DNA of 64,000 bases from Amoebophrya sp. A120. Its lineage: Eukaryota; Protista; Dinoflagellata. Position numbers and translations under genes: made by a program. The stretch spans positions 1,497,824-1,561,823 of the forward strand of contig CAJINV010000016.1 of NCBI GenBank assembly GCA_905178155.1, written 5' to 3'. Of the stretch, positions 1 through 62,210 are shown one piece after another. Each line of letters opens with the position of its first letter. The stretch's first letter is position 1. The notes beneath the pieces were generated by a model. The model was not told where the DNA came from. It was given only the letters and a program-made list of their open reading frames with translations, and made no database searches.

Positions 1-3000
1 CGCCCGTGCCGGCAGTCCAGCATCTTTGTTCGCTGTTTCAGCCCTGTGAGCGGCGTCGACGGGGGCGGGAGCAATTGGTGTGCTGCCTTCACCACCTGGA
101 CCGTCATCAACAGACTCGCCCTCCTGGCGATGTTGATCCCGTTCTTCCGTGTTCCGATTCAACATACTCCGCCCCCGGTTCTCCACCTGCATCTTTTGCA
201 GGAACGACCCGCCGGCTTCCCGCAGACTTGTCTTTTCCAAGACCTCGTCGAACGCGTTCGGGATCTGCTCGTGCGGGATTTTACAGAAGGAAATGAAGTT
301 CTTGAACTTCTTCCGGCGAGAGTTTGACCCTGTTTTGTCCAGTTCCGTCTCTTCCTGCAGAGATTCCAGGATCTCGGCGGATTGATCGTTCTCGGATACG
401 TGATTCAACGTAGCGCGCATGGCACGCACGTTGTAGGTGCAACCGTAGGGCATGTCCAACCGGTTTTTGACCTGCCGCACTTGCTTCCGCGGGCCCTTTT
501 CCTTGCCCTTGAAGCGGAACCCGAGCGACTTCAGGGCTTTGTGACAGTCCTGCACGGTGCGAATCATGTGCCTTTTGCCGCACCGGTTTGCCTTGCTCGT
601 TTCCGTCGTAGTACCACTTGTAGGAGCCGCGCGGACGGTGTAGAACGAGCGCATGCAGAGCGGCTTTTTGGCTTTTGCGGACGCGGACTGGCACTCGGTC
701 ACCTTCCCGACGTCTTTTGCGATGTTTCGCCGGGCGTGCTGCACGTAATCTGGCTTGCAGGAATGAATTTTTGCACCATTTGCGCCGGCTTTCTTCTTCT
801 TGATCCCCTGCTGCACAAAGGACGAGGAACTACTCGTGGTCCCAGAACGACCACCAACGGAACCACCTGCAGGCAGCAAGTTCGTGACGCTGAGCCGCAT
901 GTCGCGACACGGTAGCATCCAGGCGTGGGTCTGCGATTTGGGAATGGACCAGGGACCCCCGTTATGCATTGCAAATGTGTCTGGGTCTGGAAGGTTGCAA
1001 TTTAAATTTTGCATGACCCGTGACGTCTGTGATGTATTCCCTAGCATCATAGATTTTCTGAGTGCTTCTTGATGCCTACCTCGCATGAGAAATACCCTGT
1101 CCGCGTAACAAAAACTAGACTATCTTGCTGCTCAGGCAACACATACACAGATTTTTTTGGAATCCAAAACCAGCATCACAAGTTCCACCTTTCCAGACCC
1201 AGACATTTTTGCATTTGATATCCCTCCACGGCCTCGTACTTTTCGTGCGCCTGCTCGTTGAGCTTTGCCAAAATCTTGAACTTCTTCGCCGTCGGCATGC
1301 CCGGGTGGAAAATGTGGATCCATTCATTCCTTTCCCCGCCGTTCACTTCGGACGACAACACCGCGGCGGAATGGAGCAGAGGTAGCGGTTATGCATTACA
1401 AATTTCCTGTACATGTACAAGATGCATCACAAATTTCGCAAATTTGGAGTGTGAAACTTGTCATGCTAAATTAGAATCAGAGCCAAGTTTTGCCATGCAG
1501 AGACCGCATCTGTACGTGTACAGGAAATTTTCTGTGGATAGCGGTAGAATCACCTCCATGAACTCCTGAAACCGGTCGAAGTCTTGTTTTTTCACGGTTT
1601 CCGGGGGAATGAAGTCCTGTTTATTTTCCGAGGCAATCAGGTGCCAGACCGAGTGTGCGTGCTGCAAGAACGTGTTCAATAACGACAAAAATTCCTTCGT
1701 CTGCCCAAAGGGGTTCAAATGCCAAGCGGACTTCAGGTCGTCATCTACCCCTGCCTTGGCATTTTTTGATCCGGAACCAGGATGATGTTTCTTGAGTTCT
1801 TGTGCCAGATTTGACCCAGACAGCGAACAGGGGTTCACCTCAAAACCCGACTTCTCCTGAATCCAGTGGCAGAACACGCTTTCATGGGCGACGCCGAGCT
1901 GCGCCAGACCCGGGGGGAGGCGGTACAGCGAGGTCCAGCCCCGGCTGCCGATGAACTCGTCCATGGTCAGGGTGTCGCCCACTTTCGGTCCCTCCGTGCC
2001 GGGTTCCTGTGGGACCGTCCGGTGCTGGTGGAAGGCATCGATCATGGCTTTATTGGATTTCAAATTCATGTCTGCAAGAAGGTCGGAGGACGCGGACTGC
2101 TGCAAAAAGGTCGTCGCGTTGCCAGTACTTTCGGTATTAACATCAGCGCTGTCAACACCAGCACCACTTGTGTCCTCGACCTTCTTCGGGTCTTCCACCG
2201 CGTCCACGACGACTTCCTTCTTTTTCCGGGGCGCCAGAAACTTCGAGTGGGAACTCAATCCCCACGGGTGCTGGCGGTCGGGCGGCGTGGGCTCGGGGAG
2301 TTTCAGCAACTCATGCTCCATCACCGCGACAGCGGAGTCGTAGAGAACCTCCATGAAACTTGTCATGTGCTGGACTGCGGTTTCCAGATGCTGCTGAAAC
2401 GACGAAGAGCTACTACCAAGCACGACATCCTCCTCGTCGGCGGCGGATTTTTTCCCTTGCTTCGCCATGTGGGCTTGCGGCCCCTTGGAGTTCACGGCGT
2501 TTTTCAAACCAGCGATACCGATATCTCCGTTCAGAAACAGCGTGCCGAATTTCTGGCTCACAACCTCCAGACTCGCTTCCCACGGCGGCGGCGTGCCCTT
2601 CGGACGCAGAATGTCCACGATTTTTCCCAGGAATTCGTCGACTTTCACCGCCGGTTTCGCTTTGTTCCCGTAAGCGTCTTGGTACATGCCGTATTTGCCG
2701 ATCTCGAAAAACTTGTCGCGCGCAACGATCATGCTCTTCAGCAGATTCTCCGCGCTCTGGTCCTGTTTCGCCGAGCCGAAGGGACTCGCGGCGTGCTTGA
2801 GTTGACAGGCAAACGCTTGGAAAATAGGTTGGCTGATGAAGTGCGCAATGTCGTTCCGGAATCCGAGCATCACCGAGCCCATGCCCTGGTTTTTGTACAT
2901 GTAGTTGATCGCCGCGAAGTCCGCAAACTGCGTCATGACATTACTCCACGAACTGTGCCACGACCGCTCGACGAAGTTCAGGACCTCGTGCGTTGCCTGG

Positions 3001-3497
3001 GTTCTCGCAAAGGGGACAAAGTGGGCCAGTTCGGTTGCGTGGTTAAAAGCGTCGGCCACCACCATTTGTCCATTTCCTCCTGTGTGCTGGAGGGCACCGG
3101 CGTTTGCTTGCAGTTTCTGGGCCATGGAGTTCTGCGTCGTAGATCGGTACCCATCGTGGATCGAAAGGGACTTGTCGTGAGTCGGTAAATCGATCGCATT
3201 TGCGCTACCGTCTGTGCGTTCATCGTCTTCTGCGGAACGCACGACCGGCAGGTCTGGTTTCGTTGAGTTGAAGTTTTGCAACAGGAACTCATCCGCCTCT
3301 TCCTTGTCGATCTTCGTATTCGGCAGGTTCTGCCGGTTACGCGAGGTTAGCGGCGGGCGCGCGTGTTGCCGTTGGATCTTGAAGGCCTGAGTCTCTGTGA
3401 CAAGAAGCCCTGTCTCGAGCGCGGCTGCGGCGATGGTCGCGAGTACTGCGGGACGACGCGACATCGAAATGGGCTTGGTTCTACTCAGTGTTGACAT
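1..3497 (-). CDS. Putative secreted protein, 3'-truncated at window edge (>=1026 aa), 2 introner introns
   Basis: ORF 1461..3557 (likely ATG 3497, MSTLSR..., hydrophobic AVLATIAAAALETGLLV) joins in frame across elements 1390-1540 and 963-1220, then stays open to position 1 (...SSSFVQQG...IRTVQDCHKALKSLG...PYGC...GSFLQK). No recognisable family. Confidence 0.75.
963..1220. mobile_element. Introner, family A
   Basis: TIR TATGCATTGCAAATGTGTCTGGGTCTGGAA / TTCCAGACCCAGACATTTTTGCATTTGATA; imperfect DR cccgt/tccct; removal restores frame. Confidence 0.85.
1390..1540. mobile_element. Introner, family C
   Basis: TAT...ATA ends, IR AAATTTCCTGTAC, DR gcggt; spliced product VILPLPLLH. Confidence 0.88.
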
Positions 3498-5265: not shown

Positions 5266-8010
5266 TCACGACAAAACATTTGCCCAATCTTCCAAATCAT
5301 AGCGCACCCGTGACTATCCTGTGCAAAAGTATCGCACTCGTAGTAATCGCAGTCATGCATCACAAATCTGGCTCCCAAGGCACATCAGCATGACAAATTC
5401 AGCATGACAAATTCCATTTGTCACGCTGAGCGAATTTGTAAGTATTGCAATTAGAATTACTACTGCTACGATACTTTTGCAATTCATAGTGCCTGAATCG
5501 ACCCTGTTTCCGGATCGAATTCGTGCACCAATCTGCCCTGATGCACCGGGTCGATCAGTTGCAGGCGATTCAAGTCCTCGTTTTCTATCGGCGGCGCGGA
5601 CGGGCGGATGCTGTTCTCATCGTCGTGACCATCGTCTGGTATTAGAGCAGAGCCGGATGGCAGAATGGCTGGATGGCGTGGGTGGTGTTGGTGTGAAGAT
5701 GTCGAGCTGAAAGTAGAACTTGCAAGGTTTTGATGATTCGAAACCAACGCCGTTGTGGTATAATCATTTCCACCAATTCTTCCCATCCCAATCGCCTCCG
5801 CGAGGTTGTTCGGGAAGTTTTCCTCATCCTCGTGAAACCTGCTTAAGTCTTCCACGATGTACTTCTGGCTGAGCACCTGGATCTGGCCGATCCGCAAGTA
5901 ATCCAGATAGACCTGGTACACCGCGGTAAGAAGTAGAAACAACCCGGTGACAAACCCCATGAAAGTGAACGAAACCGCTAATCCGATTGCGAGGATGAGG
6001 AGGAGAAATTTGTTTTCTTGGAAATACTGCTGAAACAGCACCCGCGTGTTGTGCGCGCAGTTGTGAACGATGCCCCGGTGGGAGGCTGCCGCACGTCCTC
6101 CTCTGGTGCCGCAGCAGCAGCAGGAAAACAAGTTGCAGCAGCAGACCCACATCCTCGGTACGAAACAGCAAAACAGACTCCGGATTGCGAATAGCAAGCG
6201 GAATCTCGGCCCAAACCAGAAAAAGGGCCGGGGCGGGCCCCAGAAGAACCTGCCTCGTCGCCAGCGGTAGTTGTTCCAGCGGTATCGGTTTTGGAACCGT
6301 TGGTACTGCGGACGCAAGACGAACGCGCGCGAACCAAGCCAGGTCGTGTCTTGTTGGGGAAGCGGGTGCTGGTCATTGTTCTGCTGTTCATCCGCGGCCC
6401 GTCGAGTTTCCTGCGCTCGGCTCGATTCTGGTGTTGGCCCCACGACTACATTTTGGCCGCCGCTGGGAACCTGCCCGTGCGGCAATCTTTGCGCGATACA
6501 AGTAGGAGTTGCAGGTGACAGTTGATTGGACGCCGCAAGTATCCCATTCCCACCACCAATTACAGGCCGCATAACGCTCGCCGAATCTTGTTGTGGTTGT
6601 CCATCTCCGCGCACCGACGGTACTCCGAAAATCAGCCGCTTCAACAACCGATACCAGCCGTAGACGCTGTAAACCAGTAGAACGACGCACAAAATCTCCA
6701 CCAAACCATAGACGTAGTACACTCCCTTCCGCCCGTATCGCAAGAAAAAAGTGTTACAGTTACACATTGTGTTGCAGGAGCCGCAAGACAGACAACCTTT
6801 GTCATGCAGGAAATGCTTGCGAGCTTCGTTTCCTTCCTGTTTTCCCTTGTGATCTTCGCAAGTTTTCCCTGCCACACAGAGGAAATTTGTGATGCAGAAA
6901 CTCGAACAAATGTGTAACTGTAACACTTTTTTCTCGTGATAGCCCGAAGAAAAACTCTTCCTCGAAATTGTTCCTCCGAATCCAAGCGGGAAACGCTTTC
7001 CGGAGCTCATCGTGGAGAAAATAGATGTCAATACCCGCGGTAACGACGGCAGATAATATCACCACCAGTTGAAACAGCCAGAAGTAGAAGCAGGATTTTT
7101 TCAGAATCTTCTTTCGAAACTCCGCCTGCTCCCGTTCTCCGTTGCTCGTCACGTTTGTAACTAACCTCAGCTGGTACTCGAAACTGCACTCGCAACAATG
7201 CGTGAACGCAGCGGCGTTGTAGCTCGTTCCGTTTACGCGCCAGGCATCCAGGCATCTGCGGTGCACGAAGCGGCTGTTGAAGTTGTGGCAGAGACAGGGG
7301 GAGATCAGCGCGTTTTCATCATTGAAACTATCTGTAGAAGTCGTGTTGTTGGTGTTAACGAGCTGCGTATCTTCCGTTTCTCCCTCTTCCAGCAAGCAGA
7401 TCCGACACCGTTTTCTCGACTGGCGCGGCTGCTGTTGCTGCAATAACTCATCGCTGTAAACGCGAACTTGCAGGGGGTCGTCGTTTAAAGCGGCTTGTTG
7501 TGCATCTTCTTGTAGTTGTCCCACGACGAAACTGCTTGTTTGTTCGTGTGCCTGCGGGAACCCATCGTGAAAGGAGGTTGGTACAGCAGCGGGCTGACTT
7601 CTGCCGCGAGGTGACGACAAGGTGCCTCCGACTTGTTGGTCATTTTCCAGTAACGGCTGATGCTGTGGGTTTTGACTTAATATCTGTTGCTGCAAAACGC
7701 GCTGGAGTGGAAGCTGGGAGCTACGAGCTGGGTAGGAAAGGCTGTTGTTGATCCCACTAGCATAGCCGTAATTCGGACTAGAAGTAGCGCTCGAGGACGT
7801 CCCAGCATTCGTCGGCAAAACAATTGCGCCGGAAGCAAAAATGTTTCGATTTTCCACTTCCGTCAACACTCGGTGGGGCTGCGCTTGCAGAAACTGGGGA
7901 CGGCTATATTGCAAAGGTTGGATTTGGAAGTTGAGGCCGGGGGTGGACCGGGGAGGCTGGGGATAATTCCCGTTGCCCGTTGGCGGTGAAGGTTGGTGGC
8001 TGTTGTTCAT
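5266..8010 (-). CDS. RING-CH (RINGv/MARCH-type) membrane E3 ubiquitin ligase, ~784 aa
   Basis: CRIC...LISPCLC...FVHRRCLDAW...CCEC followed by several hydrophobic helices. ORFs 6802..8070 and 5484..7031 join after removing 6736-6941 (FFFGRKGVYY); last exon follows 5315-5488 (IQARVRYDLEDWANVLS*). Spliced length 2355 nt is divisible by 3. Confidence 0.85.
5315..5488. mobile_element. Introner, family B
   Basis: TATCCTGTGCAAAAGTATCG...CGATACTTTTGCAATTCATA; DR gtgac/gtgcc. Confidence 0.85.
6736..6941. mobile_element. Introner, family H
   Basis: About 33-bp TIR TATCGCAAGAAAAAAGTGTTACAGTTACACATT; DR gcccg. Confidence 0.9.
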
Positions 8011-8533: not shown

Positions 8534-9646
8534 CTATGCCAAGACATCTTTTTGTTTGTTGAAGTAGGGCCGCAAGACCCACTCCACCTTGCAGTCTTTC
8601 ATATCCAACGTGCCCAATTCTACTCTGTACAACTGCAGGCTGAATCTTGGACCCACTTCCCGCAATTCCACATCTTCCGCCTTCTTGTTCACTTCCGCAT
8701 CGTTATTCGTGGTCAGTCTTCGCTTCTTCATACCAGATTCTTTCCCATCCCCGTAGTTGTAATGCCGAAAATGGATGGTATCCTTGTTGTTCGCAAACGT
8801 CATCACCCGGTTTCCCAACGGCGCGGCTGGGGGGAAGAGTGCTTTAAGTATCGTTGAAACCCGTTTTCCGAACTGAGATTCAAAGTTGTGAAACACCAAA
8901 TGTGGTGCCGCCTCTGACATGTTGTCTGGCTTTTCCGCCAGGTCGTGCCTGAGGATCACGTTTTTCATTCCGAAATACGCTGTTGGTCCGTAGGGAAGAT
9001 GGGAAACAATCAACCCGTCTGGCTCACCACGATGCTCGTGAACGATCACGATATCCGTCACGTCGTTTTTCCTAGCCATATCGACCAGGTCTTTCATCAC
9101 GTAGCTACCTGTAGTTTTAGTGATGGGTTGGGGAAGGTTGACCAACATTAACATTTTCTATGCATCAAGCACATCCACATCATAGAAGCCTCGAGTCGCT
9201 TTCTTGTGATAGAGCACGACTAGGACTACGTACTGCCACGCACTAGGTCGGAGATGAAGAGAACAAATCTACTAGTTGTCAAAAACAATCTTACCTCGGT
9301 TTATCCTCTGCGCGTTGGGCAACAATAATCGGAATTCCTTCACGAAGCTCATCAACCTCGATGACGGTTCCCGGGCTGTCGTTATGACGATTTTGGGGTC
9401 TTTTACCCCCAGATACGCGTATTCGTCATCCAGGACTTGGTGTTGTTCCTTCGTCTTGTCATCGTCCAAATCCAGTTTCTGTCTCAGTTGATCGGCGGAT
9501 TTGTTTCTCAAATCGGTCGGGAGAGCTTTGTTTTCCTCGAGGGCTTCGCGTAATCTCTGTTTCTTGTCAAAAGTCGTCCGCTCCTTCTCCTCCAGCGCCT
9601 TCTGGTAAAGGTACTCCTTCCGCTGACGGGTGGATTTGCGGAGCAT
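8534..9646 (-). CDS. IMP4: U3 snoRNP protein IMP4 (Brix domain), 308 aa
   Basis: MLRKSTRQRKEYLY...DDEYAYLGVKDPKIVITTAREPSSRL...RINRG|SYVMKDL...HEHRGEPDGLIVSHLPYGPTAYF...ELREVGPRF...EWVLRPYFN; one canonical GT-AG intron 9109-9294. Confidence 0.95.
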
Positions 9647-50400: not shown

Positions 50401-53400
50401 AGCTGCCCACCACTGTTCTTCCCGGAGTTAGCACTACTTCTCGCAGAAGTTGTTCCTCTCCGCGCCCGTGCGGCGTCCTCGCCACCGCCGGTGATTGTGT
50501 TTTTCAACCTCTGCAGTATGCAATGTAAATTTCCTGTACGTGTACATGTACAAAATGCATGACAAATTTCGCTAACTTGCAGTGTCCACCTTGTCATGCT
50601 AGACTAGGATTGAAGGCAAGTTTTGTCATGCAGTGGCTGCATTTGTACGTGTACAGGAAATTTACTGTGGATATGCAGCATAGTTTCCTCGCTCGCGTAC
50701 GGATCTCCGTCCAGCTCCTGCGGTGTGTATCAACTGTAAAAATGTCTGGGTCTGGAATTCCAACTTGTCATGCTGATTTTGGATTCTAAAAAAATCTGCA
50801 TTGCATGAGCAGCAAAGAGAGTCCAAGTTTTGCTACACGGAAAGAGCATTTGTCATGCGGCATAGGCATCAGGAAGCCCTCACAAAATCTGTGCTGCTAG
50901 GGCATGCATCACAGACATCAGGAGTCACGCACAATGTGCATGACAAGCCTGGCAATCTTCCAGACCCAGACATTTTTACATTTGATAGGGTGACCGCCTG
51001 CACAAACTTCTGCATTTTCCGCGCGTACTCCACGGTTTTCCGGTACCGCTTTTTCAACTCTTCCTCGGTCGCCGGGGGCTCCCAACGGTTCGTCCTCTTG
51101 CTGTCGATGAAGGACATTTTTTGGAAGTCCTTTTTCGTCTGCTCGGCCCACATCAGGAAATTCCGCTCCCTGGGGATCCGTAGGGCGCAGAAAGCGAGTA
51201 ACGGGGAGGTAAAAGTGGAAAATTTATCCGATAAATCCTTCCGGACGTACGTCAGTCTCGCGAGTTCAAAACATTCCCGCACTTCCGTCATCTGCCCAAC
51301 GAAAGCGAAGGAACCCCAGGACTCCGGGAAGAGCATCCGTTGCTGCATGAAGTGCTGGATCATCAACAGCGCGTGCGGGCCGGGCAACGGGCGCCGGCTG
51401 TTCCCGCTGATCGCCGAACCCAGCTCTTCGTCCAGCCCCGGCGGGAAAAGCTGGATCCCCGCTGGGTCACCGCCCTTCAACTGCCGATACTTACGGGACT
51501 TCTTCCCCAACTCGGAATTCTGCCCGTCGTCGAAGTAGCTGGAGTAGCCCATCACCCCCCGGATTTGCTTGTGCAGGGCCTTCCGAGGATAGCGAAAGTT
51601 GTCGACTCTCTGCCGATACAGCTGTTTCATGTCGATGTCATTGGTCGAGAGGAGGTGGTATTTCCGCAGAAGTAGGGCTATGCGTTGCAAATATGTCTGG
51701 GTCTGGAAGAGCAAAACTTGTGATGCTGCATTTGGATGCTAAAAAAATCTGTATTGCCTGAGCTACAGCAAGAGAAGTCAAATTTGGCTACGCGGAGACG
51801 GCACTTGTCATGCAGGATACGCATCGATAAGCGCTCAAAAAATGTGTGATGCTATGGCATACATCACAGACATAGTGGATCATGGAAAATGTGCATGGCA
51901 AACTTGTCGTCTTCCAGACCCAGACATATTTGCACTTGATAAGCCCCTGCTCGCCGGAGATCCCGATGTTTTTGTTCAAGGGGTCGAAGAACAACTTCCC
52001 CGCCTATCGCAAGAACAAACTGTTTCACTGTGAACTTGTGATGCAGAAAAAGCATCACTGAAGTGTTTGTCTTGCTACACATGCAAGACAGTGGACTTTT
52101 AGCTGTGTTTTCCCTTAGGAATCTCGCATGGCAAATCTTCTCTGTCATGCGGAACAAACTTGTGATGCAAAAGTTGCAAAATCCTTACAGTGAAACACTC
52201 TTTTCCCGTGATACCGCCAGCGCGGGGTTCAATCCGGACCGCTTCTTGCAAAACTTCTCGTTCACCGCATACGCCAGGTGGATCTGCTCCAAAAGCAATT
52301 TCGCATCCTTGATCTGCCGTCCCTGGTTGAATAAATTCGACACCTTCTTCGCGACGGAGGAATCGCTTTCCTATGCTGTGCAAAAGTATCGCACTCGTAC
52401 TAATTGCTTTTATGCATTACAAATCTTTTTCTTAAGGCAAATACGCATTACAAATTCGATTTGCAATGCTGAGCTAATTTGTATTGCAATTTCTACTAGT
52501 ACGATACTTTTGCAGTTCATATTTCCAGCAGCTCGTCGAAAATTGCGGATCGCAAATCGTGCTTCAACTTCGTCTATCAAATGTAAAAATGTCTGGGTCT
52601 GGAAGATTCTGAGACTTGTCATGCATGTTTTGCATTGGCCATGATGTCTGTGATGCATGCCCTAGCATCACAGATTTTTTGAGGGCTTCGTGATGCCTAT
52701 TCCGCATGACAAATGCTCTGTCCGCGTAGCAAAAATTGCATTCCCTTTGCTGCTCATGCAATACAGATTTTTCTGGAATCCAAATTCAGCATCACAAGTT
52801 GCATTCTTCCAGACCCAGACATTTTTACATTTGATATCGTCTGATAGGTCGGCCAGTAACTGTTCGCGAAAAATTTTTTCAGCATCGGCCACCCCTCGTC
52901 GGACCCGCCCGTGCTGGCGTCCAACCACCGCCGGACGGTGTAGGACTGGTGCTGCCAATCGAGTCTTTGTTCGCAAGAAAGCCGCATGTGGTCCGCCGCG
53001 GCGCGGAAGACGTCCTGCCGGAGCCTCTCCAGGTCGATCTCGTAGTCCCCTCCAGTGACTTTCGTGTGCGTGAGAGAGGACGCAGTGCCCGCGCCAACAG
53101 CACCGATCCCGATCATCAACGGCAACGCAACGGGCGCAGCGCCAATGGCCGCGGCGACGCCGGCGGCGGCGGTGGCCGCGCCGCCGAGAAGAGCCGCACG
53201 GGAGGAAGGGAACAGGCTCTGGATTTTTTGGAGAGTTTCAGTGGTCTTGAAAGTCTTTTCATCCGGCTGCAAAGAAGATCATGAAAAACGCATAGATTTT
53301 GACAAGAAGAGGACCCTACGTGCGCATAATGCTTGCCTGATAGGTCGCATATCACAAGCTGTGTGGTTCATCTTGCATGGCCAGCATATTATACAAAGTT

Positions 53401-54776
53401 CGAAAGTACTTCTACCTGCGGCGTCGTGATTCCCAGCTGGTTCCCGAGTGTCTGCCGCGTTTTCACCAAACCTCCGAGCCCGGCGGACTGCAAAGCGATC
53501 ACCACGTCTTCCGGAATCGGCGCCGGAAAGTACGCCTTACCGGTGTTTGGCACGTCGTTGTACTGATCCAGATACTCGTTTCGGAGGATCCCGCTGGCTT
53601 CCATAGGATTCTGCTGCGGCACATAGGGATTTTGCTGCTGGTAGTTGTAGTTGTATCCGGCACGACGCTGCTGCTGCTGCTCGAGAAAAATTGTGGTTTC
53701 CCCAGTTTCGTTTGCAGTTGCCGGTGACGAAAAACTCGATTTTACCCCGACATCATCCTGCTGCTGCTGTTGGTCGACCTGAGGATGAAGATGACCTTGT
53801 TGTTCATGAGCTGCAGCAAAACTACCTCCACCAAGAAGGTGATCTTCTTCAACATCTGCGAGGCTGATCCGCACCCCGTCGATGACACTGAAGTCGTCAG
53901 TATTTTCAGCGTTCTCCACCTCTTCCTCGCCACCCCCTGCAGTTTTCAGAAACGACGAGGACGAGGAGGGTGTAACTCCCGATCCCGCTCTGTGTCCATC
54001 GTGCGCATGATCATGAGAATGTTCGTGAAGATTGTGATGGTCGTGGTCATGGCCGTCGTCCCCGTGTAAGCAGCCTTCATGACCTCCACTATGATCGTGG
54101 CTGTGACCACCTTTCTCCAGCGGGTGCTTCTGCTGCTCCCAGAACGCCGTCTTCACTTCCTCCTTTACCTTGGTGAAAACCAGCGTGTCCTTCGTGAATT
54201 TGAAGGGCTTGTTATGACAGTGCACAACTCCCCCTCCGCCTCATGTGCTGTAATGCAAAATACCAAATGCAAATCCACTCTTTCCCCTTTGGCACTCCTT
54301 GCATGACAGATTCCGGAACGACCCGAAGCAGAACTAGAATCGGTCCGGAATTTGTCATGCAAAAGCTGCATTTACGCGAAGACTTCTGTTGCTGCTTATG
54401 CCCTTCAAATGAGGAGGAGGGGAAGTTGTGCACTCTCATACTTGTCCTCCGTGCCGTCCTCTTTCGGCTCAAAGTTCTCGAGGTTCTCCTCCGTCCACAG
54501 CGGACCAAAGAACGCAGCGACCGGGAGGGGAAGAAATTTGAAAAGAAGGCAGGATAGTAGGATGGGCAGGAGAATAGCACCGCACTTCGATACTAGTCTG
54601 GAGTTTGAGATGAACGTAGTGCCGAATATGGACGACCCGGCAGCGGAGACAGTAGTAGAATGCTGCTGATGCGCCTGTGCCCCGACTTTACTAGCAGCCG
54701 AAGAGATGACCTTGTCATCTCTTGCCGCGGAGCAGCGATGTTGTCTTTCTCTTTTCCTTTTGGCAGAACCCACCAT
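29466..54776 (-). CDS. Giant putative secreted protein (~6150 aa), 25 introner introns plus 1 GT-AG intron
   Basis: Removing each of 25 elements plus one DR copy, and intron 53267-53415, gives 18462 nt of continuous frame from ATG 54776 to TGA 29466. N-terminal hydrophobic CGAILLPILLSCLLFKFLPLPVAA; His-, Pro- and Thr/Ser-rich tracts. Start uncertain because a GTAAGT donor lies at ~54797. No known family recognised. Confidence 0.78.
31186..31333. mobile_element. Introner, family C
   Basis: TATCCACTGTAAATTT...AAATTTGTGTTGCATA; DR tcggc. Confidence 0.87.
32756..33016. mobile_element. Introner, family A
   Basis: Family A TIR; DR atagt. Confidence 0.9.
34042..34186. mobile_element. Introner, family B
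   Basis: GCAAAAGCATCGCACTCGTA / TACGAGTACGATACTTTTGC; DR agttt. Confidence 0.9.
36478..36665 (-). repeat. Coding tandem repeat, 78-bp period
   Basis: APEALPPLDGAK(N/S)HPFTYG(P/S)RRG present twice. Confidence 0.85.
37111..37219. mobile_element. Introner, family D-like
   Basis: TATTCCGTGAAAATTAACCATCCCCATCCA TIR; DR gttag/gttcg. Confidence 0.88.
37599..37855. mobile_element. Introner, family A
   Basis: Family A TIR; DR gcccg. Confidence 0.9.
37942..38193. mobile_element. Introner, family A (inverted relative to 37599-37855)
   Basis: Family A TIR; DR cttgg; interior is the reverse complement of the neighbouring copy. Confidence 0.9.
39537..39654. mobile_element. Introner, family D
   Basis: TATCCAGAAAAAAACACCCATCCTGCCCATCCA; DR gatgc/aatgc. 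Confidence 0.87.
39759..40019. mobile_element. Introner, family A
   Basis: Family A TIR; DR tgtcc. Confidence 0.9.
40955..41267. mobile_element. Introner, family E
   Basis: TIR TATGGGAGTGTCAGGATTGAAATC; DR ctttc; similar to 56975-57285. Confidence 0.9.
42425..43075 (-). repeat. Coding internal duplication, 360-bp period
   Basis: KMLT.A.AG.GM..Q.A.MAP.VAAVG.E.ARS.MEPLVRSLQ.VE..EA.RVQQQLHAQEELDHQAQLEQHQA..NATE..AELSPAVQQ present twice. Confidence 0.9.
43983..44167. mobile_element. Introner, diverged singleton (family C-related)
   Basis: TAT...ATA ends, partial IR TTTACCG.ACA; DR catgt/cacgg; removal restores frame. Confidence 0.7.
45151..45259. mobile_element. Introner, family D
   Basis: TATCGAGGAAAAAACACCCATCCCCATCCA TIR; DR gttgt; highly similar to 60762-60870. 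Confidence 0.92.
45302..45555. mobile_element. Introner, family A
   Basis: Family A TIR; DR tcgtc. Confidence 0.88.
46463..46618. mobile_element. Introner, family B
   Basis: Family B TIR; DR cgcac. Confidence 0.9.
46675..48238. mobile_element. Introner, family A, carrying a nested 1.3-kb insertion
   Basis: Left TIR at 46675, remainder resumes at ~48015, right TIR ends 48238; DR gacgt/cacgt; spliced FLQYVAEAAIV. Confidence 0.85.
46718..48013. mobile_element. Nested insertion, possible solo LTR
   Basis: TG...CA ends; CTTGT duplicated at 46713-46717 and 48015-48019; internal repeats CAGGTCAC(A/G)G(T/A)CATCC x4 and GCTGCTCGCTCAT; no convincing ORF. Confidence 0.6.
48745..48907. mobile_element. 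Introner, family B
   Basis: Family B TIR; DR aagat. Confidence 0.9.
49102..49363. mobile_element. Introner, family A
   Basis: Family A TIR; DR gcctt; very similar to 52575-52836. Confidence 0.92.
49471..49723. mobile_element. Introner, family A
   Basis: Family A TIR; DR ggcaa/agcca; opposite orientation to 49102-49363. Confidence 0.86.
50111..50346. mobile_element. Introner, family F
   Basis: TIR TATGGCGTTCTCAA..GTTACATTCTCAA; DR attga. Confidence 0.9.
50517..50673. mobile_element. Introner, family C
   Basis: IR TAAATTTCCTGTAC; DR tgcag; similar to 1390-1540. Confidence 0.9.
50728..50987. mobile_element. Introner, family A
   Basis: Family A TIR; DR gtgtg/gggtg. Confidence 0.9.
51679..51941. 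mobile_element. Introner, family A
   Basis: Family A TIR; DR agggc/agccc. Confidence 0.87.
52005..52213. mobile_element. Introner, family H
   Basis: TATCGCAAGAACAAACTGTTTCACTGT / ACAGTGAAACACTCTTTTCCCGTGATA; DR ccgcc. Confidence 0.87.
52372..52521. mobile_element. Introner, family B
   Basis: Family B TIR; DR tttcc. Confidence 0.9.
52575..52836. mobile_element. Introner, family A
   Basis: Perfect TIR of >30 bp starting TATCAAATGTAAAAATGTCTGGGTCTGGAAGA; DR tcgtc. Confidence 0.93.
54213..54440. mobile_element. Introner, family G
   Basis: TATGACAGTGCACAACT / AGTTGTGCACTCTCATA; DR cttgt. Confidence 0.9.
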
Positions 54777-55652
54777 ATTTTCTGATTTCAAACTTACCGT
54801 GCTTGTAGAAGTGAAGACTCGTCAATTATACAGGTAGATCATAGTACAACAAGCACGTCGTGCTACAAACTGGAATTCACCAGGACGTCAACGATTTGCA
54901 GTCGTTCATGTCACAACAAGTAGGTCAAGCAAAAACGCGATCGGTACACGAACACGATGCGGATGCATTGCTTTGCGATACTTATCATCTGAGCCTGACC
55001 TCGAAAACTAGCGCGGCCGGGCAGAGAACATCATCATGATCGAAACGCGAATCGAGTTCGAGATCGAGCGAGACGAATAAAACGAGACGAAATCAATGCA
55101 CAACCAAACTCAGACGATGTAATTGGTCTCAACTACTGCGAATGCGAAACGAGAATTGGTATTGGATGCATATGGCACGATCTCCAGACTACACTCGTGC
55201 ATCAACATATGGCTTCAGAAGTTCTTTTCACCTCTCTAACTCTTAGTCGATCGATGCGAAAGCGAAAAGTGACAGTGAGCCGAAAACGATATAAACGAAG
55301 TTCCTCGTGGAGAGGCAGATGAGGTGATTTGCTGATACATCATGCCCTTTGTTCACAAGAAGAAACAGCGGATCTTGACAGATCATGCATGGTCCATTCT
55401 AAGAAGTAAAGAGCAAGTTGGTCTGATGGACACGCATGAACTGGAACATGATGCGGAAGTGGCATTGCACTAAAAACGTCATCGCGCCTACAACGATTGA
55501 GTTTCGCCATTGAATTTCGCTTTCAAGATTTTTAGTATTCATGCTCGATTAGTTCGCTTTCAGTTTCACATCTGTCGTCTGTGGGGAACTGCTTGTGTTT
55601 TAGCAGCAAAAAAGACACCAGGTTGTAAACGGAAACGCACATCATCTCTTCT

Positions 55653-58600
55653 TCATTTTTCCGCGCCTCCACCCGAAGGCCCATCTGCTCCCTCCCCACC
55701 CTTTTCTTCCTCCTGCCTCCTTTGCTCCTTCAGCATAGCAGCGTACTTCGCCCGCGAGGCGCGGGTGCGCAGGTGCACCCCCTTGGAATCAGGACGTCCC
55801 TGCAAATTCGCCGGACCCCTATTCATGAAATCCGGGAGAGGTTTCGAGGCTCTTGCCTTGGCTTTTGGCTTCGCTTGTTGATAATGTGGGGGAAAACCAA
55901 ACGCGTTAATATTTCCAGGAGCACCTCCGGGCTGAGCAGCACCACCGAGCCGCGACTTTTCCTTTTGTGCTTCTCCTGCACCTGGCCCCGTTGCGTTGTT
56001 CTTTATCGAAGAAGTGGATAAAAGTGCGCCACCTGCCTGAAGTCGCTGCTCCAAAACCCGCCCGGGCATGGTGATCCGTCGAATTTCCGTTATCAGGCGA
56101 AAGCTCGACATGCCTTCCCGCCTCGCCTGTTGGCGCAAATTCGCGATCTGGGTCTGCTCCTGCTTTTGCAACTTCTTGATCTGCACCACCTTCCCACACT
56201 GGCGAAGGAGAACTTGCGCTAAGGGAGACAGGCGGGTGGAATTGCGAAGATGAGATTGACCAGCTCGTTCACCTGGAATTAAGAGCGAAGCAGCTTCCTG
56301 CTGCGCGCCCCCGGTCATCATCTTGCGGCCAGTAAAGCCTTTGATGGCTCGTTTTTTACCAAGCTGCGCCAATGCGAGATGCCGCGGAATTTTCGTCCCT
56401 GATTTATTTTCTGGGACGAGCTGTATCTCCTCTCGATCTTCCACGTCTTCAACTTTCGCAAGCAAAGCCCCGGTCTTCAGTTCCTCTGCGACGGTTGTAG
56501 ATTTATTTTCGGTATGCTTGTTTCCCGGCAGTAGTTGTGCCACAACTGCATCTTCAGCTTCCGCCTCCTCTTGCTCATGTAACATCGTACCTTCGAGGGC
56601 GAAAAAATCTGCATCCGCGGCGAGCGGGTCAAACGTGCTGGTCGGTCCACCTGCACTACTAGCGTCTCGCCCCTGCGCCTCATCCTCCGCCGATCCCCGA
56701 CCGAGCAACGCTCGGTCGTCAAACACCCCGTCAAGCAAGTTGTGGAGTTGTCCATGTTGCTGCTCCCCATCAACACCTTTTTTCTTTCCTTTCGCCAAAT
56801 GCTGAAATTGCCCTTCGTCGATGACCATGTCATCCAATTTCCGTTTTATCACCTGTTTCCGCCAAATATTCTCCTCCACCGTGAAGCTCGACAACAACCG
56901 AAACACGTGGACGTCTTTCAGCTGCCCAATGCGGTGCACCCGGTCCATGGCCTGCCGGTCCGTAGCCGGGTTCCTATGGGTGTGTCAGGATTGAAACCGA
57001 CAAAGTTGAAATGATCTGTGATGCATGAAATGCAAGGCACGAAGTGACTGTCTTGCAGGGATTGCAAGAGACGCCAATTGTGAAGAGCCTGTTTCGGGTT
57101 TGGGATAAAGCTGCTAAAGTAGAATGACAGAGGATGCCTTCTTTCGCTAAACAGCATGACAAACTGGATGTCGATGACGTCGAAATTTGTCATGCGCTGC
57201 TTCGAAATTGGGCTTCCGACTGGTATCGGTTTTATGCATTACAAGCTATTTCAACTCTGTCGATTTCGATCCTGACACTCCCATAATTCCAGTCGCTGTC
57301 GTAGAAAATGACCACGTTGGCACCCGTTTATCAAATGCAAAAGCATCGTGCTCGTAGTAATTGCAATCATGCATTACAAATTTTTCTCTCAAGGTAAATC
57401 CGCATTACAAATTTAATTTGTAATGCTAAGCCAATTTGTAATGCACTTTATACTAGTACGATACTTTTGCAATGCATACCGTTAAATTCAGCCCTATGCC
57501 TCCCGCTCTGGTGGAGGAGAGCATGATAAACGTGTTTGGTTTCTCGTTGAAGTCGTCGACGAGTTTTTGTCTATCCGGGTTGCTGGTTTTTCCGTCTAAC
57601 CGACTATACGTGTAGTTGTGCACGGCGAGGAATTCTTCGAGTATGTCTAGCATTTTCCCAAACTGGGTGAACAGTAAGACGCGGTTCTGCTTCGAATAGC
57701 ACTGCTGGAGCAGGCGCTTTAAAACTTGGAGCTTCCCGGAGTCGTAGGTCAAATTCCGCGGGTCCGGCATTTGGATTAAAGACGACGAAGTAGTTGTAAA
57801 GGGTCTGTTACTCAGCATCTTCCCAGCGACGGCACCTCCACCCCCACTCTGGTCTAAAAAAGCCATCGCGCTCGAAGGAAAGAGCACCCCGCACTGACTC
57901 CTGTCTCCGCGATTTCGTGCGTAGAAGGTAGAAGCGGGAAGAACGTCAGCGTTGTCGTTGAGATCATCTCTGGTGCCAGTTGTTCCGACCATCTCCTGAT
58001 AGCGGGAGCTGAACCAAGAATTATTTTCCCGCTTCTTGTTCCGATCAGCTCGTGTCAGCTGTAGTGCGCCCGCCGCCTCGGAAAACCGAAAGCGACACGC
58101 TTTCTCGATCGCCGCTTGCGCTTCTGCGGTGCGACTCGTGACCCCTTGAGTCGATAACGCGTCTGCTGACATCACAGTAACAGAATCTTGCACGCCTTTC
58201 GTTCTTGTCAATCTCATCTTCCTCCCTTTCTTCATGCGTCCGTTGTAGATTGGTGCGGCGAGGACAGAAACAGATAGAGCCGGACGTCGCTGTGCTGCTG
58301 GATCGACGTCCCCTTCTTCAGTACAAAAGTGACCATCTCCAGAACTTCTTCTTGCGCCACCCCGGTTGATACAACGTAAACCTGACCCTCCCACCACCAG
58401 CTGTTGCGGCCCCGCACTTTTCGTGTGCCACCGGTCATCCGCGTGCTCGAGCTGTAGCTCCGTGCGAAAGCAATGCAGCCTCGCCCGCACGACCTTCTCT
58501 TCCTGCTCGGAAAGGAGAGTACTTCTAGCCGGCTTCTTTTGAAGATGCCCAGAGGTCTTGTTCAAAAATAAAGCTGCTCGACTTTTGCAGCTTTGCTGAT

Positions 58601-61600
58601 GGTGTACTAGCGGCGTTCGTTCAGGAGCACCTGGATGTAGATCCTGATATTGCTGTAAAAGTGGTTCGTCAGCTTGTTGTTCTATCAAGTGTAAAAATGT
58701 CTGGGTCTGGAAGGTTCTGAGACTTGTCATGCACGTTTTGCATGAGCCATGAGGTCTGGAATGCGAGACCTAGCATGACAGATTCTGTGAGATCCGTATC
58801 ATGCGTATCCTGCGTGAGAAACTTCCTCTCAACTTGGTCAAAAGTGGACAGCTTTTGGCATTCATGCAACACAGATTTTTGCACGATCCAGAATTAGCAT
58901 TACAAGTTGCAACCTTCCAGACCCAGACATTTTTACAATGCATATGCTCTATTTCAACATCAAACCTCCGCTCGCTCATGGCGTTCAGAAGTATCGCAAG
59001 GAAAAATCCCCCCTCCCCATATTGAAGAGGTAGGTTTTCAAAAATTTGTGTTGCTGATTTGAGGTCACAAATCACGTCTGTGTTGCAAGAAGACAAGGGC
59101 AGCAGCTTCCGTCCCATTATGGAGGCGGTTTATCATGCTGTTGAGCAAACATCACCGACGCTTTTCATGCTAAGCGCCTAAGTCAAAGCCTCTCTGCTCA
59201 GGCTTGATATGGGTCTGCAGTCCTCTCCAGCAAGACAGATGTGATTTGTGTACTCAAATACAGCAACACAAATTCCGCTTTCGATGTGGGGAGGGGGGAT
59301 TTTTCCTCACAATAAGAAGGGGTGTGAAGTTCTTGTCCGTCAGAAAACTGTTCTGGTAAATGCCACTGTGCATGTGAAAACCGTGTTTGCCGTCGAGAAC
59401 CAAGTCGCTGTCGTGGAGTTTGTTGATCTTATCCGCAAGCACACCACCTTTCAGTACGGTGCTAGTCTCGTCGCCGTCAGCATTGGAAGCTGCCCTGGTC
59501 GACGTCCCAGCATGATAGTAGCAAGGGCTGCTCCCATGATCTTCGGAGGTACCACTGGAAGCAGCCAATATGTCGAAATTCGCCGGGGGAACTAACACTT
59601 TCGGGATGTAGCACCGCAGAAACCCAAGCCCGGTCCGCTTGATCCGCTCGACCACGGAATACTCGGATGGACAGCTCGAGTGAAGGAGGAGAAAGTTCTC
59701 AAGCTCTAAGGAGCGAGTAGTTCTGGAAGTTGCTGCTGCTGCAGCTGTACCGTCTGCATGATCATTTTTCGCGATGAGTACACTGCTGCTGCTGCTTCTG
59801 GACCGGCTGCGGCCGCGCGGAAACGGGAAGCTGCATACTTCTGGCCGCGGTATCAACACATTCGCGATGGTATCCTCGCTGATGCTTGTTGCCAACGTTA
59901 ATATTCTTGATGAAGCTTTCTTGGAAGAAGATTTAGATTTTGCTTCGCCATCCCCGCCCGTTACGTTTTTCTGACGATGCTCAAAGTTTTGACAGCTTTG
60001 CCTCGCTTGCCAATTTCGGAAAGCCGTTTGTACCCGATGCGGGAGGTCGTCGGTTTGATGGTTTGAGCTTGTCCTCTCGCTGCTGCTGGTGCCAACATTC
60101 TTCTCCGGACTGTAGAAAAATTTGCTGAACCACTGCTGCTCCTTTTCGCGGGTTTTTTTTGTGAAGAAATTTGGTCTGGTTTCCTCGGTCAGCCAGGATG
60201 TTGTCAGGTTCATCAGACAGTGCAGGGAGGAACTGGAGCTAGTGGTACAACCACCGTCAGAAGCACGATCCAAAAAACTCTTCGGGCGGAAATTCGACGC
60301 GCCACACCCGCGGAGAAGGTTTGAGAAGGAGGAGGTTGGCGGGAAAGAAGAATCCAAAAAGCTGGAGTCTGAGTCTGACACAGACTCAGACATATCGTGC
60401 CTTTTGCTGGCTTTACCCCTTTTCCATCGTGGTTTCAGATAAAGACTTTCCAGCCGTATTCTCCGGGCTTCGAACAGATTCTGGTTTGCGTTGTTGTGAT
60501 GATAATTCCGGCTCGTCGGAGCATTTACATGATCTCCAGGATAATTGGAGGACACGAGGAGGTTTAAGAGCTTGTTGAGTCCGAATCCCCTGCTCGTCTC
60601 GCGAACGTCGCCACGACGTCCTCTCGGCAAGAAAGAGCCACCTCGTGCTCGTCCTCCAGGCTCCTCTTGTAGAAGATCAACAAAAACGATTTCCGGCACG
60701 ACAAAGCGGATCACATCCTTCATTGCGAAGGGGATTTGCACCTTCCGCGGCTCAAACATGTTATCCAGGAAAAAACACCCAACCCCATCCAATTTGTCAT
60801 GCAAAACATGCATAAAGTCCACTATTTGTCATGCAAAAAATGGATGGTGATTGTTGTCTTTTCCTGGATACATGTCCGGATGGTTGCACACTTTCCGCAA
60901 GTGCATCAGCACGTGCATTTTGCCCAGATAGTCCTTCTTGCCCTCCTTCTGCATGACCTGCTGGACGTACCTGCGATTAATGAACTCGTCGTACAGAAAC
61001 CGCTGTCGTTTTGACAGCCCGCAGGGGACCACGTGCTCAATTTTCGCGGGCAGCTCCTTCTCCACCTGCTTTTTCAACCGGCGGAGAATGCACGGGCGGA
61101 GCAGTCGGTGGAGCCGGTCGACGATGTTATTTTGCTGGTCATTTGCTCCTGCAGATGAAGACGAGGCATTTTTTCCTTATGGATTGCAAAAATGTCTGGG
61201 TCTGGAAGATTGCAACTTGTTATGCTGTTTTTGGAGTCTAAAAAAATTTGTATCGCGTGACCAGCAAGAGGGGCGCAATTTGTGTTACACGGACAGGGCA
61301 TTTCTCATGCGGCAGGCGCATCAGGAAGCCCTCTGCAGGTCTGCGATGCTAGGTCATGCATTACAGGCATCCTGGGTCATGAGAAATATGCATGACAAGT
61401 CTTGCATTCTTCCAGACCCAGACATTTTTGCATTTGATATTCCTGTGCCTGAAACAACAGAACTTGGGTTCTTCTTGTTCAAGTCCTTTTTCAAAAAGGA
61501 CACGTCCAAGCGACCCTTCTTTCCCTCCTCCTCCGCGGCGGCCGACTCAACAAACTGCACCAAGGGGTTGTTAAACCACTCTTTGAAGTCCTGGTGCGAG

Positions 61601-62210
61601 ACGAACAAGTGCGGCATCAGGAAATTATGACAGTGCACAACTCCCGCTCCTCCTCATTTGTCATGCAGAATACCCAATCTACCCTTTGCCTCTTGGCACT
61701 GTTGGCATGACAAGTTCTGGTAGCCCAAAGAGCACCACACTCAAGTGCAAATTTGTCATGCAAAACCGCCACTCTTGCTGGTGCTTGTGTTGCCGTTCAT
61801 GGTATCCAACCGAGGGGGAGGGGGACGAGTTGTGCACTCTCATAGAAATGCAAGAACGCCCACAATTCCATCAGATCGTTCTGCAATGGCGTCCCGGTGA
61901 GCAGTATGCAGCGCAAAAGTATCGCACTCGTATGGCAGTCATGCATTACAAATCTTTTTCTCAGGAGCGTAAATCTGCATTACAAATTTTATTTCTCATT
62001 ATGAGGATATCGATATTTGTAATGCATTTATACGACGAGTACGATGCTTTTGCAATTCATAAGCAGTAACCGCGCTTGGGACACGAGGGGTAAAAGCAGT
62101 TGCCACTTTTGCGATTTGTAGTTCCTGATCAAATGCGCCTCGTCCAAAACGATGAATTCCCAGTTTTGCAAACGCTTGAAGTGGCTGATGTCCGAGCAGA
62201 TCGTGTTGTA
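55653..62210 (-). CDS. SWR1: SWR1/SRCAP-type SNF2 chromatin-remodelling ATPase, 5'-partial (>=1574 aa), 8 introner introns
   Basis: [91 protein letters not shown], long insertion, [50 protein letters not shown]. These motifs appear only after element removal. Confidence 0.88.
56975..57285. mobile_element. Introner, family E
   Basis: TIR TATGGG.GTGTCAGGAT.GAAA; DR gttcc/attcc; splits DWN|P. Confidence 0.92.
57329..57478. mobile_element. Introner, family B
   Basis: Family B TIR; DR ccgtt; splits NLT|GANVV. Confidence 0.92.
58683..58944. mobile_element. Introner, family A
   Basis: Family A TIR; DR tgttc/tgctc. Confidence 0.9.
58992..59314. mobile_element. Introner, singleton (family H-like terminus)
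   Basis: GGAAAAATCCCCCCTCCCCA IR at both ends; DR agaag. Confidence 0.87.
60762..60870. mobile_element. Introner, family D
   Basis: TATCCAGGAAAA TIR; DR catgt; splits HPDM|FEPR. Confidence 0.92.
61178..61439. mobile_element. Introner, family A
   Basis: Family A TIR; DR ttcct. Confidence 0.9.
61626..61844. mobile_element. Introner, family G
   Basis: TIR TATGA.AGTGCACAACTC; DR gaaat; splits LHF|LMPH. Confidence 0.92.
61905..62061. mobile_element. Introner, family B
   Basis: Family B TIR; DR agcag; splits LLL|TGTP. Confidence 0.92.

Follow-up and report, generated by a model that had tools for sequence, protein, structure and literature searches.

TAT...ATA introner elements in coding exons of Amoebophrya sp. 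A120 and the register of their removal

How are hairpin elements that interrupt coding exons and lack GT-AG ends taken out of the genes of Amoebophrya sp. A120, and what must be read for their removal? The question is raised by a window of 64,000 nucleotides (the whole stretch of DNA analysed here), in which 39 elements were mapped between positions 963 and 62061, every one opening with TAT, closing with ATA and lying within minus-strand ORFs (Table 1). These are the published A120 introner elements, and their existence is already in print. Farhat (2021) described the A120 inverted repeats as TAT + 7 nt + AAA with junctions supported by RNA-seq, mentioned 5-bp direct repeats in the legend of Fig. 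S19, gave the repeats as 3-5 nt with an undefined intron border, and reported that more than 60% of A120 introns are without GT-AG (PMC7789003). A preliminary description of this DNA had assigned the elements to introners of the Amoebophrya type; it was right as to type, but they are not merely akin, being the same strain's published system, TAT ends and 5-bp repeats included (PMC7789003). The two sets share the strain (by protein identity), the TAT + 7 nt + A-tract, genes with both types of intron and the lack of an internal transposase. The present account departs from the published one in a strict repeat length of 5 nt, a cut narrowed down to base 3-4, and the apparent protection of a single U in the 5' arm.

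Table 1. Introner elements, host genes and other features of the window
Feature	Position	Strand	Remarks
introner	963..1220	-	258 nt, main family, repeat 3/5
introner	1390..1540	-	151 nt, repeat 5/5
introner	5315..5488	-	174 nt, repeat 4/5
introner	6736..6941	-	206 nt, repeat 5/5
likely GT-AG intron	9109..9294	-	186 nt; Brix-domain gene without introners
likely GT-AG intron	15419..15552	-	134 nt; gene of introner 16091; inferred from frame
introner	16091..16311	-	221 nt, repeat 5/5; likely GT-AG introns in same gene
introner	22293..22456	-	164 nt, repeat 5/5
host gene	29469..53278	-	5781-aa ORF after removing 24 introners
introner	31186..31333	-	148 nt, repeat 5/5
introner	32756..33016	-	261 nt, main family, repeat 5/5
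introner	34042..34186	-	145 nt, repeat 5/5
introner	37111..37219	-	109 nt, repeat 4/5
introner	37599..37855	-	257 nt, main family, repeat 5/5
introner	37942..38193	-	252 nt, main family, repeat 5/5
introner	39537..39654	-	118 nt, repeat 4/5; cut right at TAT would give stop codon
introner	39759..40019	-	261 nt, main family, repeat 5/5
introner	40955..41267	-	313 nt, repeat 5/5
decayed introner	43983..44167	-	185 nt, repeat 3/5, arms 3 nt out of register; joint skips 190
introner	45151..45259	-	109 nt; joint in contig skips 114
introner	45302..45555	-	254 nt; joint in contig skips 259
introner	46463..46618	-	156 nt; joint in contig skips 161
main-family introner	46675..48238	-	1564 nt, repeat 4/5; joint in contig skips 1569
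insert in introner 46675..48238	46719..48020		1.3 kb, 55% GC
introner	48745..48907	-	163 nt; joint in contig skips 168
introner	49102..49363	-	262 nt, main family, repeat 5/5
introner	49471..49723	-	253 nt, main family, repeat 3/5
introner	50111..50346	-	236 nt; joint in contig skips 241
introner	50517..50673	-	157 nt, repeat 5/5
introner	50728..50987	-	260 nt, repeat 4/5, mismatch at base 4
introner	51679..51941	-	263 nt, main family, repeat 3/5
introner	52005..52213	-	209 nt, repeat 5/5
introner	52372..52521	-	150 nt; joint in contig skips 155
introner	52575..52836	-	262 nt, 32-nt perfect TIR, fold z -9.5; joint in contig skips 267
introner	54213..54440	-	228 nt, repeat 5/5
host gene, SWR1-type SNF2 helicase	55656..62588	-	1700-aa frame, 8 introners
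introner	56975..57285	-	311 nt, repeat 4/5; interrupts SWR1 DWNP motif
introner	57329..57478	-	150 nt; interrupts SWR1 NLTGANVV motif
introner	58683..58944	-	262 nt, main family, repeat 4/5
introner	58992..59314	-	323 nt, repeat 5/5
introner	60762..60870	-	109 nt, repeat 5/5
introner	61178..61439	-	262 nt, main family, repeat 5/5
introner	61626..61844	-	219 nt, repeat 5/5
introner	61905..62061	-	157 nt; interrupts SWR1 LLLTGTP motif

Anatomy, families and candidate mobiliser

TAT is present in all 78 arms of the window elements, and A occupies TIR positions 11-13 in 33-37 of 39 elements per arm. Of the 5-nt direct repeats, 28 are perfect, 7 match at 4/5 and 4 at 3/5. The recount upholds the initial account of TAT...ATA ends with a 5-bp repeat of no consensus in 39 elements inside coding sequence, and its count of at least eight sequence families agrees with the eight groups found by clustering interiors; the ~260-nt and ~150-nt families are chained together in one of these groups. 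For comparison, 335 TIR pairs were picked from 143 metagenome loci with no repeat required; by BLAST, all but one of the 39 elements of the window find a match in these loci (38/39). The 5-nt repeat is perfect in 256 of these pairs and matches at 4/5 in 41, against three perfect repeats at the 4-nt register and none at the 6-nt register, and is thus not due to chance. None of its five positions shows a base bias (p 0.15-0.93) or a purine bias. The wider set has exceptions to TAT, with one end altered in 17 of 343 copies. Twelve main-family arms have no partner, most of them close to locus ends.

The search of the window bore out the earlier statement that it holds no autonomous copy. The 1.3-kb insert has no Pfam match and occurs once only across the window and the loci, no transposase match was found among 51 ORFs from nine long copies, and no TIR match in viral contigs. 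The statement that no transposon superfamily fits the elements was too strong. IS3EU and GingerRoot have TA..TA ends and a 6-bp TSD, Ginger2/TDD a 4-5-bp TSD, hAT5 a 5-bp TSD and IS481EU a TSD of ~4, 15 or 25 bp (PMC10045372, PMC12730594). The TA..TA or TNT..AYA termini of IS3EU, GingerRoot and IS481EU resemble those seen here; the 6-bp TSD of the first two does not (0/335 perfect at 6 nt), whereas the 4-5-bp TSD of Ginger2/TDD and fam38-type elements is matched by the 5-nt repeat. For none of IS3EU, GingerRoot, Ginger2, IS481EU and hAT5 is a strict 5-bp TSD stated to go with TAT ends. In Gozashti 2025 (PMC12130899), the A120 families are TIR DNA elements at mostly non-canonical sites, like those described here, and automated TSD calls are 2-6 nt or missing, with no single splice register, among 41 of the 58 A120 rows. 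One of these families, fam38, is annotated there as 'Ginger; 5-bp TSD, TA/TA termini', with Copia/Gypsy-like (integrase-like) ORFs; the likeness to it is one of description (5-bp TSD, TA/TA termini), not of sequence. A class for the transposase had thus already been proposed, and of the two components first listed as unidentified, transposase and removal machinery, only the latter keeps that standing.

Frame restoration and joints in contigs

Removal of each element plus 5 nt places all 39 sites inside ORFs of at least 150 aa and yields the ORFs of 5781 aa and 1700 aa. With control trims of 0, 3, 4 or 6 nt, no ORF exceeds 1090 aa, the one of that length being free of elements, and 32-38 of the 39 sites still fall within some ORF of at least 150 aa, so that this count alone is a weak control. 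The 5781-aa ORF gave no Pfam match in its 14 larger exons. Residues 817-1700 of the SWR1 frame are 100% identical to a protein labelled Amoebophrya sp. A120. The motifs LLLTGTP, NLTGANVV and DWNP are each interrupted by one element, and after removal their alignment with the A25 orthologue and with Babesia SWR1 is gap-free; both the restored frame (39/39) and the restored motifs therefore hold as first claimed. The rule of 'element plus 5' also mends gene models, since the deposited A120 protein holds only the last 884 of the 1700 SWR1 residues. The coexistence of GT-AG splicing in the same transcripts, put forward as general, is likely for one gene, that of introner 16091, as judged from its frame.

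The joined form is observed in the RNA-like X1 contigs (RNA status presumed, no DNA control), which skip element plus 5 at 9 of the 24 elements in the compared stretch. All nine joints skip exactly this length and fall in the direct repeat; they are counted at contig level, where rare variants are dropped. Three raw RNA runs placed 12 reads in total, uninformative on joints. The removal of element plus 2 (N-TAT...ATA-N, leaving an extra codon) is contradicted by the nine joints and the SWR1 alignment.

GT-AG lies at the repeat register in none of the 39 window elements (GC-AG is possible in three) and turns up in 11 of 212 cases when every register is allowed, which does not match the GT/GC donor and AG acceptor of major (U2) spliceosomal introns. 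The claim of exact removal without GT-AG is borne out at the nine presumed RNA joints. Use of cryptic GT-AG pairs nearby, which had been set beforehand as one of the outcomes that would refute it, has some basis in 16 of the 39 elements, where a GT...AG pair no more than 15 nt from the ends would keep the frame; contradicted by the position of all nine joints and the empty repeat register, and at odds with the exact removal that the SWR1 motifs need, it is hardly credible.

Two other explanations place the joints outside RNA processing, and both are very improbable. If elements were removed from DNA, by programmed excision or as empty alleles in the sample, X1 would represent element-free DNA; its RNA status is indeed presumed, and GT-AG junctions are absent among the X1 joints shown. 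The exon pieces listed for the X1 contigs, however, show 0 differences from the window, two other runs carry 71-75% of the sequence words of the stretch as against 29-35% in X1-X3, and removal from DNA would treat both arms alike, whereas protection of the first T is confined to the arm that lies 5' in the transcript (see below). Alternatively, reverse transcriptase may have switched template at hairpins with direct repeats, the mRNA retaining the elements in dead genes or under ribosome hopping. A hairpin with a short direct repeat is a known recipe for false introns (PMC8240250). Such an artefact gives no reason for a strand-specific U, nor for a frame that stays open over 24 insertions and split SWR1 motifs that are conserved against A25 and Babesia; the weakly folding element at 43983, with its 3/5 repeat, is joined too.

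Register of the cut and the first base of the 5' arm

Which copy of the repeat is retained matters, as one register produces a stop at 39537. The joint at 43983 keeps repeat bases 1-3 from the upstream copy, which puts the cut no earlier than after base 3; the joint at 46675 keeps base 5 from the downstream copy and, together with the stop at 39537, puts it no later than after base 4. The cut thus appears to fall within both repeat copies, after base 4 (or base 3), and a cut after base 4 would make the intron N-UAU...AUA-NNNN. Within the window, 50728..50987 is the only site that separates the two registers. Mismatch polarity (GC versus AT) was considered as a guide to the cut and dropped, since it agreed with a cut after base 4 in 11/11 cases in the window and in 11/26 in the loci, and fared no better with 47 imperfect copies. 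Codon likelihood in the loci climbed weakly up to a base-5 cut.

The arms were compared by strand in 293 copies: 254 of 404 unique loci elements that could be stranded automatically (150 unstrandable ones were dropped) and the 39 of the window. Neighbouring strand calls agree in 149 of 150 cases. Five doubtful pairings, together with one-arm candidates bearing a non-TAT end, were dropped from one set of lists. TIR base 1 (T) is altered in no copy on the RNA 5' arm as against nine on the 3' arm (n=293, p 0.004, post hoc), whereas inner TIR changes are symmetric (131 versus 146). Seven of the nine altered 3' ends are ATG, in which a U-G wobble is kept, so that a 'closing pair' reading fits most of them. 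TIR base 2 (A) is altered once on the 5' arm (TTT, in locus L025); an earlier candidate, protection of both U and A (0 versus 6), was narrowed to U alone when this copy appeared. At the RNA level, removal probably requires the U that opens the 5' arm, and a cut after base 4 would place this U at intron position +2, as in GU.

No comparable constraint was found elsewhere. G before TAT is not in excess (48 observed, 53.8 expected, among 172 perfect repeats), nor is AG; no 3'-arm position is protected as a branch point or U-tract would be, and the region for U2 pairing is predicted to sit in the stem. G at +1, AG and a fixed branch sequence all appear dispensable. In the literature searched, no earlier report was found of the cut within the repeat, of 5'-arm U protection or of the absence of G, AG, branch or wobble bias.

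Removal mechanism

Removal guided by structure is plausible. As regards plain structure guidance, the 5' arm has one base that is apparently read as sequence. The reading we prefer, tentatively and at somewhat less than an even chance, combines a relaxed spliceosome, for which N-U would serve as donor and the hairpin would place the far end, with TIR elements likely moved by a putative integrase-type transposase. Non-autonomous TIR transposons (the A120 introner elements) would insert with a 5-bp target duplication, their mobilisation likely due to an integrase-type transposase; element and one repeat's worth of bases would then be cut from the pre-mRNA by a spliceosome that reads U as second intron base and takes the far end from the hairpin. 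The strand-specific U would be at +2 if the cut follows base 4, which would be in keeping with a spliceosome. U2, U4, U5, U6 and most spliceosomal proteins are present in Amoebophrya and U1 was not found (PMC7789003). In Table S4 of the same study, the nine top A120 site pairs all start with N-T and the nine A25 pairs with TT, which is weak support, as these pairs were placed by the aligner. The same spliceosome uses GT-AG elsewhere, and some bias might be expected. Fritillaria provides a precedent for spliceosomal splicing without GT/AG: its spliceosome is of the U2 type, and its genome contains MITE-derived introns whose ends are non-canonical (PMC13326754; PMC11282704). Its preferred ends are AG-AC and AG-AT and its U1 is intact, whereas here the ends are free except for one U.

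A non-spliceosomal route is a substantial possibility, also short of even. A nuclease recognising the structure might cut at a fixed offset (~1 nt before and 4 nt after the element) and an RtcB-type ligase might join the exons, by analogy with animal SOS splicing or the route suspected for euglenid non-conventional introns. Consistent with such a route, removal is indifferent to repeat sequence and to element orientation (55 same, 45 opposite and 4 unclear in the main family, n=104), the 1.56-kb copy is taken out whole, and inner stems are predicted to pair in 34 of 38 window copies. Against it, element 43983..44167 folds no better than shuffles (z -0.26) yet is exactly joined, and stems show no excess of G-U over A-C (162 versus 143; 68 versus 62 elements). 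SOS splicing strips exonic DNA transposons from mRNA in C. elegans and human cells; paired ITRs set it off, and it depends on AKAP17A, CAAP1 and RTCB (PMC12779559, which contains 0 mentions of dinoflagellates or Euglena). It is, however, imprecise and gives many isoforms, whereas removal here looks exact at nine joints. Euglenid non-conventional introns share the TIR hairpin, TSD-like repeats, lack of GT-AG, longer 3' spacer and occurrence beside ordinary introns, and the 3-nt and 5-6-nt spacers around the paired motif of Euglena amount to the same 2-3-nt offset; Euglena needs a paired CDG/CHG, those spacers and a purine past the junction, none of which is seen here (PMC12501133, PMC11282704).

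The more specific form of the preferred reading is doubtful: a spliceosome, or a hybrid, would read a single base, with an N-U donor, no U1, AG or branch consensus, and an acceptor fixed by the hairpin 4 nt past the end of the element. If it is true, every insertion by a member of this transposon clan, including one with 1.3 kb of cargo, could be removed exactly and silently, which would make the system a precise counterpart of animal SOS splicing. A fixed register and a single protected base make the removal mechanism open to specific tests. If confirmed, the mechanism would demonstrate how little need be read for splicing, and how a genome may live with transposon insertions in its coding exons that number in the tens of thousands.

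Introners and reading frames

Under strict criteria, a scan of the window identified 28 TAT...ATA elements whose 5-nt flanking repeats are perfect. Eleven further elements, with 3/5 or 4/5 repeats, were recovered by a relaxed scan, from one contig joint and by querying the window with the set in BLAST, matching in total the 39 elements of the preliminary description. All 39 lie within minus-strand ORFs. Removal of each element plus 5 nt (element+5) yields ORFs of 5781 aa (24 elements), 1700, 1049, 808, 806, 399 and 291 aa, whereas with other trims (nucleotides removed beyond the element) the longest ORF is an element-free one of 1090 aa; the claimed restoration of the frame is thus borne out, as is the rebuilding of SWR1 motifs, three of which are split by elements and, once these are removed, show gapless alignment with Babesia SWR1 and the A25 orthologue. 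Over 884 aa, this SWR1 frame is 100% identical to a protein carrying the label Amoebophrya sp. A120; similarity is lost upstream of about 62210, and an ATP-binding motif I of the usual form was not found in the frame. The ends had also been described as offering no consistent GT/AG, and GT-AG indeed occurs in 0/39 window elements at any register (splice position counted within the 5-nt repeat), with GC-AG possible in three.

Coordinates of further features in the window
Feature	Position	Remarks
5781-aa ORF	29469-53278	24 introners; its 14 larger exons give no match to Pfam
GT-AG intron, likely	15419-15552	in the gene carrying element 16091; placed from the reading frame
GT-AG intron, likely	9109-9294	in an element-free Brix gene; placed from the reading frame
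1.3-kb insert	46719-48020	55% GC, inside a main-family (~260-nt) introner; contains short repeats near 46834-47016; target duplication not clear; no coding match; a joint in X1 skips the enlarged element in full
GC-rich repeats	62200-64000	about three copies of a 300-400-nt repeat, plus two short hairpins (63739-63959); the stretch is possibly a further repeat family or a long intron

A larger sample of 143 metagenome loci (628 kb, overlapping) was retrieved with one TIR pattern. Matches to 38 of the 39 window elements, and none to the window exons, are found in these loci. Among 335 TIR pairs, collected without requiring a repeat, 256 carry a perfect repeat at the 5-nt register, 3 at 4 nt and none at 6 nt; a trim of 5 opens the coding frame in 171 of 284 cases and trims of 3, 4 and 6 in 63-75. 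The main family is inserted in both orientations (55 versus 45). In window and loci together, the repeat starts at codon positions 1, 2 and 3 in 68, 97 and 128 of 293 copies (p 1e-4), a preference seen in a repeat itself lacking base bias. Within L001:500-2300, the minus strand carries an ABC-transporter-like gene (above about 1800) and the plus strand carries coding-like pieces (500-1570); the strand switch, where TIR arms are mismatched, would be either an inversion between introner arms or a misassembly. In L044, the final exon of a gene for a cysteine-rich protein has a second copy about 1 kb downstream (210-500, 1270-1560).

Removal in contigs and position of the cut

Exact removal without GT-AG, as previously claimed, is seen in contigs of X1, a run taken as RNA by guess only and with no DNA control. 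The comparison covered 43500-63000, which holds 24 elements, and among the matches listed at least nine joints skip exactly element+5, including a 1564-nt copy; six other listed matches resemble repeat cross-mappings. Three recorded RNA runs contribute 12 reads in all to this interval. Such joints might be produced artefactually by cDNA synthesis skipping hairpins, a process described in the available text of PMC8240250. Two observations weaken this reading: the protein is conserved across element sites, and the joint at element 43983 is exact despite a 3/5 repeat and a fold z-score of -0.26 (compared with -9.5 for element 52575).

Imperfect repeats allow the cut to be bracketed. At 43983 the joint retains bases 1 and 3 from the upstream copy of the repeat, at 46675 it retains base 5 from the downstream copy, and at 39537 a cut at TAT itself would create a stop codon. 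If one rule holds, these three sites would therefore place the cut after base 3 or 4 within both repeat copies. The polarity of GC-versus-AT mismatches had seemed to indicate base 4 in 11/11 window mismatches, yet did so in 11/26 in the loci and was discarded; at a second look at imperfect loci copies polarity was no clearer, with codon likelihood weakly favouring base 5. Many copies (L004, L017, L054, L072, L123, L133 and others) carry 2-6-nt indels inside one arm while keeping TAT/ATA ends and a perfect repeat; the cut therefore cannot be set solely by a fixed ruler measured from the inner stem.

Signals at the element ends

After allowing for codon position, no base bias is found in 172 perfect repeats (p 0.15-0.93). 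GT-AG occurs at some register in 11 of 212 cases, and stems show no excess of G-U over A-C. Inner stems are predicted to pair in 34 of 38 window copies and the three terminal pairs in 24. Pairing at TIR positions 4 and 7 is barely above chance, and at chance for main-family positions 4, 5 and 7. Unlike positions 8-30, which are conserved in window and loci, arm positions 4-7 are variable, with a few words common to several families and between-arm combination at chance in the main family (141 copies); they may form a spacer separating the sites of transposase cleavage and binding, or reflect exchange of arms between copies.

One non-TAT end is present in 17 of 343 copies found by the inner TIR alone. 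With strands called from flanking codons (neighbouring calls agree in 149/150), base 1 is changed in none of the RNA's 5' arms and in nine 3' arms (7 ATG, 2 ATC) among 254 loci copies; the corresponding counts are 1 versus 2 for base 2 and 4 versus 3 for base 3, and changes at inner positions are symmetric (131 versus 146). All 39 window copies are unchanged. Two more base-1 cases, L001:1359 (strand called by hand) and L119 (strand unsure), are both in the 3' arm. Of the confident cases gained in a second pass, the two at base 1 fit the prediction and the one at base 2 goes against it. The asymmetry has an unadjusted p of 0.004, for an idea that arose from data already in hand. Because it follows the transcribed strand, it favours processing at the RNA level and speaks against excision from DNA.

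A cut after base 4 would place the protected U at intron base +2, the position of the second base of a GU donor. Alternatively, this U may be protected as part of a closing base pair in which wobble is tolerated, which fits seven of the nine altered 3' arms. In Table S4 of Farhat et al. (PMC7789003), the top A120 pairs all start N-T and the A25 pairs all begin with TT, although aligner placement limits their weight.

Published relatives and route of removal

The available text of Farhat et al. 2021 (PMC7789003) reports that RNA-seq-supported non-canonical introns make up more than 60% of the total, gives A120 inverted-repeat motifs as TAT followed by seven looser bases and then an A-tract, mentions 5-bp repeats in the legend of Fig. 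S19, terms the intron border unknown and records U1 as not found. In the supplementary table of Gozashti et al. 2025 (PMC12130899), most A120 families, among 41 of 58 A120 rows, are TIR DNA of unknown superfamily. From these descriptions, the elements are therefore a known system, with about 30,000 annotated copies, and the features of the preliminary description are already in print. This includes coexistence of GT-AG introns and introners in one gene, which is likely, from the reading frame, in the window gene carrying element 16091 and was reported by Farhat et al. (PMC7789003); another Amoebophrya species has mainly GT-AG introns, according to the accessible part of PMC12005148. Literature searches, with subscription papers and supplement figures outside their scope, found no paper on the register or the one-base signal; Farhat S19-S25 (splice-site logos and TIR positions) and Roy et al. 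2023 may hold part of the register result, and the available part of preprint 10.1101/2020.10.14.339549 has no mention of Amoebophrya.

No transposase was found in the window, consistent with the claim that it holds no autonomous copy, or in nine long copies, and viral contigs contain no TIR match. Family fam38 is annotated 'Ginger; 5-bp TSD, TA/TA Termini' by Gozashti et al. (PMC12130899), whose text gives it Copia/Gypsy-like ORFs and considers it not a known Ginger. As described in the accessible parts of PMC10045372 and PMC12730594, IS3EU and GingerRoot have TA..TA ends but 6-bp TSDs, and TSDs are 4-5 bp in Ginger2 and 5 bp in hAT5. Comparison of the elements with published descriptions of fam38 and these transposon groups makes a mobiliser of integrase type the most promising candidate.

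For removal, a spliceosomal route, to which we give just short of an even chance, would have a U1-less, relaxed U2-type spliceosome read N-U as donor and the hairpin position the acceptor; a precedent is described for Fritillaria (available text of PMC13326754, PMC11282704). A nuclease-ligase route, like SOS splicing or euglenid introns (accessible parts of PMC12779559 and PMC12501133), is almost as probable, favoured by the absence of G, AG and branch signals; the lone U and exact joints favour the spliceosome over it, SOS splicing being imprecise. With the cut bracketed and an apparently protected U identified, the mechanism becomes testable.
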